From the NCBI GenBank assembly GCA_046351295.1, contig JAXLYT010000035.1, forward strand, positions 13,452 through 77,451: a stretch of DNA of 64,000 nt. The letters run 5' to 3'. Both the position numbers and the translations under genes were made by a program. The notes below the pieces were generated by a model that saw only the letters and a list, made by a program, of their open reading frames with translations, was not told the DNA's origin and did no database searches. The DNA is from Byssovorax sp. (lineage in GTDB: Bacteria; Myxococcota_A; Polyangia; Polyangiales; Polyangiaceae). This document shows, piece after piece, positions 57,709-60,587 of this stretch (within the stretch, counting starts at the first letter, position 1; each line of letters starts with the position of its first letter).

Positions 57709-58989
57709 ATGAGCAGCGACGGTCTCCCCGATCCCGATCCCGAGGTCCTCGCGTATCTGAGCCGGCCCGAGCATGCCGACAAGATGCGCGAAGTGATGGT
57801 CCGCGCGGCCTCCTCGGACATGCCGGTCACGGTCGACTGGACCAAGGGCGAGCGCGAAGGAAAGCGCGTCGCCGGGGTGGTCCTCAAGCGCACGTACAGG
57901 CTCCACAAGGGGCGCTTCGAGCTCAGCAGCGAGGGGCAAGAGGCCCTGATCCGGGGCGAGCTCGGCTATTTCGACGACAGCAAGTCGGTGCGCCTCGCGC
58001 CGCCGATCTTCGTCAACGACTACTACGCGGCCCGCCGGAAGACCGACGTGGTGATCCAGGGCTTCGCGTTCGCACCCTCGCCCGCGACCCGCCATCTGAC
58101 GGCCACCGTGCGCTTCGGCAAGCACGAGCGCTCGATCGAGGTCTACGGCGCGCGCCGCGGCGAGTACGACGCGGGCAAGAAGCCCCGATTCTCCGAGCCC
58201 GAGCCCTTCGAGATGATCCCGATCCGCTACGATCTCGCGTACGGCGGCGTCGACATGGTGGCCCTCGCGCGCAAGCTCGGTTACCCCGATCCCGACGCCG
58301 AGGTGGCGATCCCGGAGGAGACCGAGTTTCACTATCCACGGAACCCCTGCGGCCTCGGCTATCTGATGGAGCTCGACTGGGAGAGCTTCATGGGCCTCCG
58401 GCTACCGCACCTCGAGCACCCGTTCGATCCGCTCACCCCCGAGCGCCTCGCGGTCGGCGCGCCCGGGCGGTGGCTGCGAGGCTCGCTCCCGGCGGCCTGG
58501 GACTGGCAGTCCGAGAGCTGGTTTCCTCGCGCGGCGTACCTCGGCATGGCGCCGCTCTTCGACGATGACGGGACGGTGCCGGCCGAGGTCCAGAAGGGCT
58601 GGGCCGCCAGGGATATCCTCGAGATCCCGATGATCTTCCACGATCTCGACGGCACGCCGAGACGCGAATATTCCCAGGCCGCGTCGCCCGGGATGAGCTT
58701 TACCGACCTGTCCCCGCGCGAGCATTTCGAGATCAAGAACATGCACCCGAAGGAGGCTCGCCTCGCCTTCGACCTGCCAGGCGACGTTCCCAAGGTCACC
58801 GTCGCGTTCCAGAGGGACACCTTTACCGAGCTCGAATCCCGGCTCTGCTCGGTGGTGATTCGCCCCGATCGCGAGGAGCTCGTGGCGACCTGGAGCGCGC
58901 TCGCCGAGGTCGACCGGGACTACGAGAAGCTCGAGCTGATGAGCATGCGCTCCGAGATCGCGTGGGCGCGCGGAAGAGAGGCCACATGA
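57709..58989 (+). CDS. DUF2169 family protein (T6SS VgrG-associated adaptor-like)
   Basis: It shares the blocks VVLKRTYRL, NPCGLGY and WDWQSESWFPRAAYLGMAPLF with the two paralogues below. It sits immediately after vgrG. Confidence 0.7.
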   Translation: MSSDGLPDPDPEVLAYLSRPEHADKMREVMVRAASSDMPVTVDWTKGEREGKRVAGVVLKRTYRLHKGRFELSSEGQEALIRGELGYFDDSKSVRLAPPIFVNDYYAARRKTDVVIQGFAFAPSPATRHLTATVRFGKHERSIEVYGARRGEYDAGKKPRFSEPEPFEMIPIRYDLAYGGVDMVALARKLGYPDPDAEVAIPEETEFHYPRNPCGLGYLMELDWESFMGLRLPHLEHPFDPLTPERLAVGAPGRWLRGSLPAAWDWQSESWFPRAAYLGMAPLFDDDGTVPAEVQKGWAARDILEIPMIFHDLDGTPRREYSQAASPGMSFTDLSPREHFEIKNMHPKEARLAFDLPGDVPKVTVAFQRDTFTELESRLCSVVIRPDREELVATWSALAEVDRDYEKLELMSMRSEIAWARGREAT

Positions 58990-60587
58990 GCTGGGCGACC
59001 TGCGCCTTCCGGCGGGCAGATTTCTTCATCGGCTTCTCGTTCCACGAGGCCATGTTCCCGCCCCTGCCCCCGATCCCGTATTACCCCCACATCAGCTTCG
59101 GGATCGTCAGCGGCTCGACGCAGCTCTTCTCGCTGCCTTCCTGCGGCAACCACAAGCAGATAAGCTCGAACGGCCTCCACCTCATGGGCCGGATGAGCGA
59201 CGCCTTCCCCATCGTCCCGCACCTGAGCTACCCGCCCCAGTGGGGGCTCGTCATGACCACGCTCTTCGGAAGCTCCAACATGGTGTGGGGCTCGGGCAGC
59301 GTGGAGCTCAAGTGCTTCACCGTCTTCGCGAGCCACGGCCAGGCGGCCGACATCAGCTCGGCCCTCGGCTACTGCGTCTCGCCGCACCTGTCGTGCAACG
59401 AGCCGCTGAGCTTCCTCATGGATATTGCCTGCGTGACCGACTCGACCACCATGGTCGGGATAAGCCTCGGCGATTTTCTGGCCTCGCTCATCGACATCGC
59501 CATCCAGCTCGCGATGGAGCTCGGGATGAAGGCGCTCTTCGCCGGCTTCAAGACGCTGAAGGGCCGCCTCACCTCGAGCAAGAAGATCCTGAAGACGGAC
59601 AAGTTCGTGAAGTTCTCCGAGGCCTTCGACGCCGTCCAGGCGAAGACCCAGGTCGACGACCTGGTCAAGAACGGCTGGAGCTTCAACGAGGCCGCCGAGG
59701 CCGCCACGAGCAAGGTCAAGAAGGCCGGCGAGGCGGCCGAGGAGTCGGGCGTCTACAAGTACGGCAAGAAGCAGATGACCGCGAAGAAGAACGCGCTCGA
59801 GACCATCGACAACGCCGCGAACGTCAAGACGACGTACGACGAGATGCTGAAGAACGGGAAGATCACGGACGACGCGTACAAGAACATGATGAAGATGAAC
59901 GACGAGGACGTCGTCATCGCCAAGTACAAATATGCCAAGGCGAGCTCCAAGCTCGACGAGATCGACGACGCCTGGTACACGACCTGGGCCAAGGAGCTCA
60001 ACAAGTCGCTCAGCAAGACGGGCGACGACGCCCTCATCACGAGCCTCGACAGCGCCGGCACCTGGAAGGCGTGGCACAACGCGTATCTCGACGGCTCGAA
60101 GAACTGGTTTTACAAGCTCATCGGCTGCTACGATGCGACCAACCTGTTCCTCCAGGCGTGGACGAAGACGGGCGATAGCTGGTACCAGAAGATGCTCTAT
60201 CCCCTCGCCCGGCGGCTCACGGCCCGCATGGGCACCCTCGCGTCGAAGTTCTACTCGGCGGGGACCACCGGCAGCTACGCGAGCGAGGATTCGACCATCT
60301 GGAGCTTGTGGGGCAACCGGCAGGACCTCATCGACGAGCTGAACGGCTTCAGCGCGACGAGCACGACTGAGGCCGACGACTCCTCCGCGAGCTACGACCG
60401 GTTCGGCTGGGTCGACGAGACCGTCGGCTCGACCGGGACCAAGACGCGCTTCGGACGGACCACGTCGTTGACAGCGGGGACGAAGGACCAGTGGGCGGAC
60501 GAGAGCTTCAATGCTTCGTCCCAGAGCCGCTTCACGTGGGTGCCCGCGGACGACGATGACAGCGAGAGCGACACCGACGCGACATAG
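58986..60587 (+). CDS. candidate T6SS cargo effector: N-terminal PAAR-like (DUF4150-like) domain + Lys-rich helical C-terminal domain of unknown function
   Basis: It overlaps the DUF2169 gene by 4 bp. The N-terminus MSWATCAFRRADFFIGFSFHEAMFPPLPPIPYYPHISFGIVSGSTQLFSLPSCGNHKQISSNG resembles PAAR-like domains. Downstream composition is atypical (low GC, Lys-rich). Confidence 0.55.
   Translation: MSWATCAFRRADFFIGFSFHEAMFPPLPPIPYYPHISFGIVSGSTQLFSLPSCGNHKQISSNGLHLMGRMSDAFPIVPHLSYPPQWGLVMTTLFGSSNMVWGSGSVELKCFTVFASHGQAADISSALGYCVSPHLSCNEPLSFLMDIACVTDSTTMVGISLGDFLASLIDIAIQLAMELGMKALFAGFKTLKGRLTSSKKILKTDKFVKFSEAFDAVQAKTQVDDLVKNGWSFNEAAEAATSKVKKAGEAAEESGVYKYGKKQMTAKKNALETIDNAANVKTTYDEMLKNGKITDDAYKNMMKMNDEDVVIAKYKYAKASSKLDEIDDAWYTTWAKELNKSLSKTGDDALITSLDSAGTWKAWHNAYLDGSKNWFYKLIGCYDATNLFLQAWTKTGDSWYQKMLYPLARRLTARMGTLASKFYSAGTTGSYASEDSTIWSLWGNRQDLIDELNGFSATSTTEADDSSASYDRFGWVDETVGSTGTKTRFGRTTSLTAGTKDQWADESFNASSQSRFTWVPADDDDSESDTDAT

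Follow-up and report, generated by a model that had tools for sequence, protein, structure and literature searches.

What role does a protein recorded at NCBI as a "hypothetical protein" of a Byssovorax MAG play in a vgrG island? The ORF in question (hereafter the target; positions 58986-60587, + strand, 533 aa, ATG start) lies in the 64,000-nucleotide stretch of DNA that was analyzed here, which we call the window. An initial annotation had interpreted it as a candidate novel T6SS toxin, in which a PAAR-like, VgrG-capping N-terminus is fused to a Lys-rich helical domain. We consider it probable, at roughly three chances in four, that the target is a specialized T6SS spike-tip protein from an undescribed PAAR-fold family that is served by a two-DUF2169 loading system. 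Literature searches turned up neither this family nor any arrangement with two DUF2169 proteins.

Gene model and codon usage of the target

The ORF is real, and all peptide strings quoted from it in the initial annotation are present. An alternative in-frame GTG start exists at 58962, upstream of the target ATG; the homologs and the NCBI protein start at MSWATC. The full-length protein has no match in Pfam, NCBIfam, PADLOC, or PDB sequences, and no catalytic domain was recognized, as the initial annotation had also reported.

Local GC content had been described as clearly low, and this holds, because the interval 59001-60000 is the minimum of the window (0.622 versus a mean of 0.695, with an SD of 0.029). 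The accompanying report of A/T-ending codons does not hold. These codons are very rare in the target (Lys AAG 39, AAA 1; Glu GAG 21, GAA 0; Asn AAC 18, AAT 1), and its GC3 of 0.95 is the same as that of VgrG and of the neighboring 72-aa ORF. The GC deficit is confined to codon positions 1 and 2 (GC1 of 0.49). Therefore, the low GC reflects amino-acid content rather than foreign codon usage, and the GC3 value and codon counts led us to reject horizontal transfer and, with it, the proposal of a compositionally atypical, recently acquired module.

Organization of the vgrG island

The genes of the island are arranged in the order VgrG, 72-aa ORF, DUF2169, target, convergent DUF2169, and third DUF2169. 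VgrG (55150 to 57456, + strand, 768 aa, verified start MTKIPV) matches Pfam Phage_GPD (1.2e-61), Gp5_trimer_C (5.8e-17), and Phage_base_V (6.8e-8) and presumably provides the docking site for the target's cone. It lies upstream, in the same order, in three other loci (L001, L002, and L005). Downstream of VgrG is an ORF (57477 to 57695, + strand) for a conserved 72-aa accessory protein without known family, whose C-terminus, NFWKGAWRIYEAE, is invariant. It has no match in Pfam, NCBIfam, or PADLOC, including none to DUF6484 or DUF3540. Its homologs in L001, L002, and L005 share 46-67% identity, and others are encoded immediately after distant family members whose C-termini are unrelated (72 aa in L012 and 78 aa in L011) and in Sorangium (L013). 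A role for this ORF as an immunity protein was considered and rejected because it is also found with members that have unrelated C-termini.

DUF2169 proteins are established chaperones of VgrG-capping PAAR-like domains (PMC11883445; PMC13373197). The gene for the first of these proteins (57709 to 58989, + strand, 426 aa; Pfam DUF2169, 1.3e-41) shares an ATGA overlap at 58986-58989 with the target, in which its stop codon and the target start codon overlap. Its orthogroup, termed "upstream," adjoins family members in L001, L002, L005, L010, L011, L013, and L014. The second gene (60594 to 61709, - strand, 371 aa; Pfam DUF2169, 7e-46) is convergent and ends 6 bp past the target stop. This convergent copy is kept in L001, L002, L005, and L012, and its "convergent/first" orthogroup provides the first gene of a tandem pair in L010 and L011 and an upstream gene in L014. 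The third gene (61742 to 63733, + strand, 663 aa; Pfam DUF2169, 2.4e-49) encodes a long protein of a separate orthogroup, with orthologs in L001, L005, and L013. Its C-terminal extension of ~300 aa carries no annotation and has no Pfam match, and its connection with the target is uncertain.

The window ORFs that were tested include no T6SS core gene, so this is an orphan vgrG island. No class-specific Tvp component (TvpC with DUF6484/DUF3540, TvpB with pentapeptide repeats, or TvpD) was detected in the island, which also has no DUF1795 (Eag) gene. The initial annotation was also correct that no immunity-like gene follows the target, since the next gene is the convergent DUF2169.

Distribution of the target family

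An exhaustive profile search yielded about 188 representatives (clusters at 50% identity) that share only residues ~1-200 with the target. The family is defined by the N-domain together with an invariant amphipathic helix at residues 161-197, and its vgrG islands are found in Sorangium, Minicystis, Byssovorax, and uncultured bacteria. The same five-gene module is present in Minicystis rosea and on two metagenome contigs. Every family member that was sampled adjoins DUF2169. This includes all of the distant ones (P0048, P0025, P0013, P0120, P0008, P0150, and a variant in L008), most of which are accompanied by two DUF2169 genes and VgrG. A neighbor-joining tree resolves the conserved "upstream" and "convergent/first" orthogroups, corresponding to a ratio of two DUF2169 proteins per tip protein. 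Some loci (L001, L005, L010-L012, and L014) also carry an ORF of 150-180 aa that resembles the VgrG C-terminal beta-helix and matches only DUF2345, weakly; this small ORF is absent from the window.

One homolog, P0006, is N-terminally truncated and lies outside any T6SS context. This observation was counted against the spike-tip reading, as were the lack of T6SS core genes among the tested window ORFs and the missing sequence-profile link to PAAR or DUF4150.

The predicted N-terminal cone domain

The first 160 residues of the target (58986 to 59465, + strand) are rich in Pro, Cys, His, and Phe (13 P, 6 C, and 7 H), in agreement with the Pro-rich, Cys-containing N-terminus described initially. 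AlphaFold modeled residues 1-190 with pLDDT >90 when given an alignment of 126 sequences; with 7 sequences only, the pLDDT was 42 and the N-domain was unusable. In the better model, residues 1-160 are predicted to adopt an all-beta conical fold that matches PAAR cones, appears superposable on solved PAAR structures, and resembles no peptidase.

By sequence, this domain belongs to an unclassified family. A search of residues 1-160 against full Pfam-A at E<=10 found no PAAR (PF05488), DUF4150 (PF13665), or DUF4280 (PF14107), the full target gave nothing against PF13665 at E<=1, and the family profile found no PAAR among PDB sequences. The same tool scores genuine PIPY proteins with PF13665 at 1e-13 to 1e-37 (e.g., 3.6e-37 and 9.6e-13). 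Comparison by hhalign with self-built profiles gave probabilities of 6-13% over 12-13 columns for DUF4150 and 0.2% for T4-type PAAR, but these tests are insensitive because the positive control (DUF4150 versus PAAR) reached only 0.6%. Therefore, they were not counted against distant kinship. The initial annotation had staked its DUF4150 assignment on a profile match to PAAR or DUF4150, so this assignment falls. Its fold-level idea of a PAAR-like N-terminus that caps VgrG survives through the predicted structure and the conserved synteny with VgrG and DUF2169.

Two sets of conserved residues stand out in the alignment of 126 sequences. H20 (123/126), H79 (120/126), and C137 (125/126) are near-invariant, as is D72, and H35 is retained in 77 sequences. 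Orphan PAARs bind Zn through four His/Cys ligands (bioRxiv 10.1101/2020.10.28.356139), and H20, H35, H79, and C137 fit such a set, which makes them candidate ligands of a Zn site. The second set forms the motif P28-P-I-P-Y-Y-P-H35, in which P28 (115/126), P29 (100/126), and P31 (113/126) are largely kept and position 32 is variable or gapped. The target carries a literal P29-I-P-Y32, whereas the family-wide form is PPxPxxPH, in which the Y/F is not conserved. This motif parallels the prolines of PIPY domains that contact DUF2169 (PMC11883445). In PIPY domains, the conserved P(I/V)P(Y/F) motif is located close to the vertex of the cone.

The amphipathic helix and the C-terminal extension

The cone is followed by the amphipathic helix common to the whole superfamily (residues 161-197; 59466 to 59576, + strand), in which D163 is present in 125 of the 126 aligned sequences and D163/S167/D170/Q174/E178 line up as a narrow polar stripe. 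The highest Kyte-Doolittle 19-mer score of this helix is 1.44; no 19-mer reaches the cutoff of 1.6, and no transmembrane segment is predicted in the target. Residues 198-345 (59577 to 60020, + strand) constitute a Lys/Asp/Glu-rich helical spacer of variable length (K27, D13, and E11; net charge of +3), with helices predicted at pLDDT 70-97. Identity to homologs is 19-38% in this spacer, 63 insertion columns map to the 201-260 bins, and no other part of the target is as poorly conserved or as prone to indels as the Lys-rich helices. Residues 346-457 (60021 to 60356, + strand; pLDDT <60) make up a Trp/Tyr-rich helical region (7 W and 7 Y) with the conserved blocks MLYPxARR and WGxRxDLIDxIxG and the invariant residues Y405, R410, and G443.

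The protein ends with a putatively disordered, acidic, Ser/Thr-rich tail (residues 458-533 plus stop; 60357 to 60587, + strand; net charge of -10) that carries RFGW at 472-475, a degenerate TRFGR at 486-490, and RFTW at 515-518. A repeated D-RF-x-W motif within an acidic disordered tail is the conserved C-terminal feature, and it appears one to three times at the C-terminus of P0002-P0008, P0010, P0011, and P0047. AlphaFold predicts residues 161-452 to be helical and the last ~75 to be disordered. The helical character proposed initially for the remainder is thus borne out except in this tail, and the Lys/Asp richness is borne out in residues 198-345.

Foldseek searches against PDB and BFVD returned only nonsignificant helical matches (generic hairpins) because the untrimmed full-length model was the query. 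The top match was ApoB100 (E of 0.068, probability of 0.14, TM of 0.11), which is not significant. Thus, the C-terminus matches neither a phasin nor an apolipoprotein in Pfam or by Foldseek, which were the nontoxin families that the initial annotation had named as counterexamples. A cationic membrane-lytic helix was also considered and rejected on the basis of the +3 net charge of the spacer, few windows with a high hydrophobic moment, and poor conservation.

We regard as improbable the proposal that the C-terminal ~335-380 residues are a novel spike-delivered toxin, either antibacterial or anti-eukaryotic, whose immunity gene is absent or located elsewhere. The hypervariable C-termini of the family (139 members forming 89 clusters) are reminiscent of polymorphic toxins, and yet a scan of the target and of 134 relatives found no known toxin domain. 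A PAAR-like delivery domain joined to a variable C-terminus is the architecture of specialized T6SS effectors, but there is no immunity candidate, and the sole small conserved ORF (72 aa) accompanies unrelated C-termini. Furthermore, the Lys-rich helices stand out for poor conservation and frequent indels, and their near-neutral charge and lack of amphipathicity speak against membrane lysis or pore formation. The absence of a predicted transmembrane segment and the nonsignificant generic hairpins from the fold searches also count against a toxin. Window-type operons contain no other candidate cargo gene, which leaves the extension as their sole visible payload, whereas separate candidate effectors are encoded downstream in other loci (Rhs in L008, a trypsin-like protease in L010, and an astacin-ricin protein in L013). 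The toxin proposal is therefore weakened.

A model for spike-tip loading and its implications

In the spike-tip model that we favor, residues 1-160 would form a PAAR-type cone, from a sequence family missed by the Pfam PAAR, DUF4150/PIPY, and DUF4280 models. Synteny and the predicted fold suggest that this cone caps the VgrG trimer, whose gene lies 1.5 kb upstream. Until the spike fires, the cone and helix 161-197 would be held by a pair of distinct DUF2169 chaperones, one from the gene just upstream and one from the convergent gene downstream, and the 72-aa protein probably contributes to this loading. The remaining ~335 residues would be a spike passenger in which a variable, highly charged helical spacer leads into a Trp-rich region and then into the acidic D-RF-x-W tail. 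This passenger is most likely nonenzymatic, and our best guess is that it serves in docking, in recruiting cargo, or in binding a target; a novel toxin is the rival reading.

A more far-reaching version of this model is offered tentatively. The family might represent a fourth class of T6SS cone beside PAAR, PIPY/DUF4150, and DUF4280, one in which a metal site like that of PAAR is combined with a proline patch like that of PIPY domains. Such a class would have its own loaders (two nonredundant DUF2169 proteins, the 72-aa factor, and often a VgrG-tail mimic) and short hypervariable C-termini with acidic Trp motifs (D-RF-x-W, ...SIWD) that dock separately encoded cargo rather than act as toxins. 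If this is true, the family would reveal a new cargo-loading logic, represented to date by Polyangia genomes and by uncultured bacteria from metagenomes.

PAAR, DUF4150, and DUF4280 models serve to locate spike tips and their fused effectors. Because the target family is invisible to these models, a whole set of vgrG islands is now annotated as "hypothetical." According to earlier reports, DUF2169 occurs strictly together with DUF4150, and the target family fills the same slot. The constant pairing of two distinct DUF2169 orthogroups offers a natural system in which to ask whether DUF2169 recognizes the patch of prolines, the amphipathic helix, or the two together. If the C-terminal tails are docking motifs and not toxins, PAAR extensions that appear to lack effectors would be read differently. 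In practical terms, the impact is modest, since machines of this kind are already known.

Comparison with known tip and chaperone systems

Known PIPY proteins (DUF4150, PF13665) include V. parahaemolyticus VP1415, P. aeruginosa Tse7, and A. tumefaciens Tde2, with DUF2169/TvpA as the chaperone. Their genes are located directly after DUF2169 and near VgrG, at a ratio to DUF2169 of about 1:1 (PMC11883445). The target occupies exactly this slot in its vgrG island. It also shares an N-terminal domain of what is predicted to be the same cone fold class, with or without a C-terminal extension, as well as conserved prolines (literal PIPY in the target, PPxP family-wide) and a presumed need for DUF2169 in forming the VgrG tip complex. 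These similarities could mean that the target is simply a very divergent DUF4150/PIPY member (PAAR_E type) with nothing new at the family level, but we find this unlikely. PF13665 readily detects genuine PIPY proteins and yet misses the target and all 134 relatives scanned, and the hhalign comparison, insensitive as it is, gave no match. PIPY domains have a hydrophobic core in place of a Zn site (PMC11883445), whereas the near-invariant His/His/Cys of the target family suggests a retained metal site. Furthermore, the target domain is larger (~160 aa plus an obligatory helix versus ~110-135 aa), its motif Y/F is not conserved, two distinct DUF2169 orthogroups rather than one accompany each tip protein, an extra conserved 72-aa protein is present, and none of the scanned family members has a known toxin domain.

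It is highly doubtful that Cys, His, and Asp residues of the N-domain (C137, H79 or H20, and D163 or D72), although 90-99% conserved in 126 sequences and compatible with thiol hydrolases, form a catalytic set (e.g., for a cysteine protease or autoprocessing) instead of a structural metal site, because the predicted fold is a PAAR cone rather than that of any peptidase, no peptidase family matches, and the four conserved His/Cys are exactly as orphan PAARs use for Zn.

Canonical PAARs (PF05488), which bind the blunt end of the VgrG beta-helix, include E. coli c1882 (4JIW), V. cholerae VCA0105 (4JIV), and phage T4 gp5.4. The four conserved His/Cys positions of the target family may correspond to the PAAR Zn site, a tetrahedral arrangement of four His/Cys near the tip, and the P-L-[MV]-A-R-G-x-D of some members resembles PAAR-x-GD. 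However, there is no sequence-profile similarity, and the target domain is ~60% larger. Canonical PAARs also need no DUF2169 to bind VgrG, and their genes rarely lie next to one for DUF2169 (PMC11883445).

As in prePAAR/Eag effectors (e.g., Tse6 and RhsA), a hydrophobic helix, presumably chaperone-shielded, lies beside the PAAR-type domain. In the target, this helix follows the cone, is amphipathic rather than transmembrane, and is not accompanied by a DUF1795 gene. The prePAAR motif AARxxDxxxH was considered for the target's A-F-R-R-A-D and rejected, because the His lies 8 residues past the Asp and the positions are not conserved family-wide.

Finally, the island departs from Tvp systems (classes I-III; Monlezun et al. 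2026, PMC13373197) in that it has two TvpA paralogs, lacks a pentapeptide-repeat TvpB and any thiolase-like or TvpD component, and uses a PAAR-like component that is neither DUF4150 nor PAAR by sequence. Its 72-aa factor falls outside the classification in PMC13373197, and this small ORF has no DUF6484/DUF3540 match. The VgrG-tail-like ORF of relatives recalls the TvpC VgrG mimic, although the window has no such ORF. Nevertheless, the core is the same as in Tvp systems, consisting of VgrG, DUF2169 (TvpA), and a PAAR-like protein.

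An orphan vgrG island surrounds the gene

The open reading frame at 58986-60587 (+) is a genuine gene (GC3 of 0.95), and its 533-aa product, a putative T6SS spike-tip protein hereafter called the query protein, is 100% identical to a "hypothetical" protein of a Byssovorax sp. MAG. It resides in an orphan vgrG island, where the VgrG gene (55150-57456, +) is followed by a 72-aa ORF (57477-57695, +), a DUF2169 gene of the "upstream" type (57709-58989, +), the query gene, and a convergent DUF2169 gene (60594-61709, -) located 6 bp past the query stop codon. A long DUF2169 gene (61742-63733, +) is divergent from the latter. 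The island is preceded by a lipoprotein-like ORF and a gene for a metal-dependent hydrolase, and none of the other large window ORFs tested is related to T6SS. The query ATG and the stop codon of the DUF2169 gene before it share bases in an ATGA overlap (ACATGAGC), and the purine-rich stretch GGAAGAGAGG lies immediately 5' of this start. Together, these sequence features suggest that the two genes are translationally coupled.

The initial annotation interpreted the gene as a recently acquired toxin module. The peptide strings it quoted are all found in the protein, and the low local GC it reported is real, because the bin 59001-60000 is the window minimum (0.622 versus a mean of 0.695, SD 0.029). 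The drop is confined to codon positions 1 and 2 (GC1 0.49, GC2 0.46), and GC3 equals that of the VgrG gene and the 72-aa ORF (0.95). Therefore, the low GC reflects a protein rich in Lys, Asn, Thr, Ser, and Asp. The A/T-ending codons that had also been claimed are almost absent (Lys AAG 39 versus AAA 1; Glu GAG 21 versus GAA 0), which together with GC3 rules out foreign DNA and leaves recent acquisition unsupported.

Other products encoded in the window were also noted. The long DUF2169 protein (663 aa) carries a C-terminal extension of ~300 aa that has no Pfam match and differs from the usual pentapeptide-repeat fusion. Its orthologs (594-624 aa) occur in Minicystis (locus L001), in locus L005, and in Sorangium (locus L013), and its operon continues beyond the window end. 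A 978-aa protein (30500-33436, +) matches domains of the Major Vault Protein, at 1.3e-16 for MVP_shoulder, 6e-7 for Vault_3, and 1.5e-4 for Vault_4; MVP-like genes are not known to be common in bacteria. Two very large repeat proteins are presumably secreted or surface-exposed: a 1,296-aa FG-GAP-rich protein that also contains a dockerin-like segment and matches CBM96 (45598-49488, +), and a 1,503-aa PKD-repeat protein (25010-29521, -).

The N-terminal module defines a family of candidate tip proteins

Only six proteins are similar to the query over its full length (33-53% identity), namely A7982_13534 of Minicystis rosea and others that are all metagenomic. The three encoded on sufficiently long contigs share the module of VgrG, 72-aa ORF, DUF2169, homolog, and convergent DUF2169. 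Another of the six, P0006 (L003 / L004 10001-11464), is missing the first ~90 residues, or about half of the putative cone. It has no T6SS context: on contigs of two separate origins, one a JGI metagenome and the other an NCBI assembly, its neighbors are genes for glutamate synthase and MTHFR. It may be either a remnant or a C-terminal module put to another use.

An exhaustive search of 1.84 billion representatives with a family HMM (E<=1e-3) identified 188 proteins of 270-1295 aa. All but the six full-length relatives match profile positions ~1-200 only. Thus, the N-terminal domain of ~160 residues and the helix that follows form a module that is reused with many C-termini.

AlphaFold modeling with 7 sequences gave pLDDT values below 35 for the N-terminal domain, and modeling with a 126-sequence alignment gave values mostly above 90 for residues 1-190. 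The latter model predicts an all-beta domain (residues 3-159) and then a long helix (161-197). This helix is amphipathic with a narrow polar stripe (D163, S167, D170, Q174, E178), and its Kyte-Doolittle 19-mer maximum of 1.44 is too low for a classical transmembrane segment.

The predicted all-beta domain agrees with the PAAR-like N-terminus proposed initially, whereas profile searches returned no such match. Pfam found nothing in residues 1-160 even at E<=10, as did NCBIfam and PADLOC with the full-length protein. None of the 134 relatives scanned matches PAAR, DUF4150, or DUF4280, and the same tool scores genuine DUF4150 proteins (Mesorhizobium and Caballeronia plasmids) at 3.6e-37 and 9.6e-13. 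Alignment of the family by hhalign gave probabilities of 6-13% over 12-13 columns against a 122-sequence DUF4150 profile and 0.2% against a T4-type PAAR profile, but the positive control (DUF4150 versus PAAR) reached only 0.6%, so these narrow profiles cannot rule out remote kinship with either class.

Among the 126 aligned sequences, H20 (123), H79 (120), C137 (125), and H35 (77, with Tyr in 28) are accompanied by D163 (125), D72 (113), and the prolines P28 (115), P29 (100), P31 (113), and P34 (103); residues 29-32 of the query read P-I-P-Y. Orphan PAAR proteins bind Zn via four His/Cys positions (bioRxiv 10.1101/2020.10.28.356139), and the query family likewise has four conserved His/Cys positions that are candidate Zn ligands. 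In contrast, PIPY (DUF4150) domains are reported to have no Zn site, and the prolines of their P(I/V)P(Y/F) patch touch a DUF2169 loop (PMC11883445). The query carries such a P-I-P-Y sequence, and its family conserves candidate His/Cys ligands of the kind that PIPY domains reportedly lack. Judged by these residues, the N-terminal domain may combine features of both known tip classes.

Two DUF2169 orthogroups and a small protein accompany the family

Distant family members lie in comparable gene arrangements. VgrG, a 164-aa ORF, and two DUF2169 genes precede P0048 (L010); P0025 (L011) follows VgrG, a 179-aa ORF, and two DUF2169 genes and precedes a 78-aa ORF. The order at L012 is P0013, 72-aa ORF, convergent DUF2169, VgrG, and 173-aa ORF. 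P0120 has a DUF2169 gene before it and, beyond one ORF, another after it, and P0150 (L014) is flanked by DUF2169 genes on both sides. Sorangium P0008 (L013) follows a DUF2169 gene, with a long DUF2169 gene close by. BLAST and neighbor-joining comparisons revealed that the "upstream" and "convergent/first" DUF2169 orthogroups both go with the family regardless of gene order. The "long" type clusters separately and is closer to classical DUF2169.

A plasmid of Candidatus Methylocalor cossyra (OZ026885.1, L008) carries VgrG and two tandem DUF2169 genes, then a gene for a 264-aa protein (7139-7933) before a DUF6531-RHS toxin gene. Its product, annotated as a "membrane protein of unknown function", matches the N-domain HMM weakly (E 6e-6) and appears to be a variant that is split and carries a hydrophobic insertion.

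The 72-aa protein is 46-67% identical among close loci, and its homologs occur in Sorangium (L013) and beside members with unrelated C-termini (L011, L012). Therefore, it is better regarded as an accessory to the shared module, and we reject it as an immunity protein for the query C-terminus. Six related loci also have an ORF of 150-180 aa beside VgrG (L010 2362-2856; L011 1983-2522; L012 5293-5814; L001 5702-6160; L005 792-1322, -; L014 3-743), whereas the window and L002 do not. Its product ends in NDDV[KR]LNGERI[KR]LNC, resembles the C-terminal beta-helix of VgrG, and has a weak DUF2345 match.

The proposed C-terminal passenger is less likely to be a toxin than a docking or binding region

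We favor the view, at a probability of roughly three in four, that the query is a specialized spike-tip protein. Its PAAR-fold cone would cap the cognate VgrG, and two different DUF2169 chaperones, probably helped by the 72-aa protein, would hold it in a loading-competent state with a lineage-specific passenger attached.

That this passenger is a toxin, as initially proposed, is possible but less likely. The idea draws on the absence of other cargo in the operon and on the hypervariable C-termini of the family (139 sequences, median length 139 aa, in 89 clusters). However, the immunity gene is missing, and no known toxin domain was found among the family C-termini scanned, in which the Ig-like Big_12 is the sole recurrent Pfam domain. 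A hydrophobic 19-mer is present in only 2 of the 139. Several related loci encode separate candidate effectors downstream (Rhs, a trypsin-like protease, astacin-ricin).

The query C-terminus itself is also spacer-like and disordered in character. Residues 198-345 are helical and highly charged yet near neutral (K27, D13, E11, net +3), have few amphipathic windows, and are conserved less, and more prone to indels, than any other part (identity of 19-38%; 63 insertion columns within the 201-260 bins). This segment behaves like a spacer or stalk. Residues 346-457, modeled at low confidence, are rich in Trp and Tyr and contain two conserved blocks, MLYPxARR and WGxRxDLIDxIxG. Residues 458-533 are predicted to be disordered, with a net charge of -10 and 1-3 repeats of a D-RF-x-W motif that is common to more distant members (Sorangium P0008, P0010, P0011, and P0047). 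Comparable acidic Trp motifs (such as SIWD, SIWP, and VSEW) are found at the C-terminal ends of other subfamilies. We suspect that the conserved Trp-acidic tail acts in docking or binding and is not enzymatic. Fold searches returned only helical hairpins for this part of the protein and nothing significant (ApoB100, E 0.068, probability 0.14), which gives no reason to call it a phasin or apolipoprotein.

The Big_12 C-termini occur in the long members P0025 (L011 4849-8736), P0038, P0040, and P0042, which have no enzymatic domains. Passengers of this kind are unusual on a T6SS spike tip.

Comparison with known systems

Neither this family nor a two-DUF2169 arrangement turned up in our literature searches. 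Published surveys report strict, mostly 1:1 linkage of DUF2169 to DUF4150 and recognize three synteny types or Tvp classes, with ~20% of DUF2169 genes uncategorized (PMC11883445; PMC13373197). The 150-180-aa ORF of the related loci brings to mind the VgrG mimics termed TvpC in Tvp systems (PMC13373197) and, by analogy, may be such a mimic. Machines that combine VgrG with DUF2169 and a PAAR-like tip are already known. What appears to be new is a sizeable tip-domain family that PAAR, DUF4150, and DUF4280 models miss, the two DUF2169 orthogroups and the 72-aa factor that constantly accompany it, and its Trp-acidic tails.
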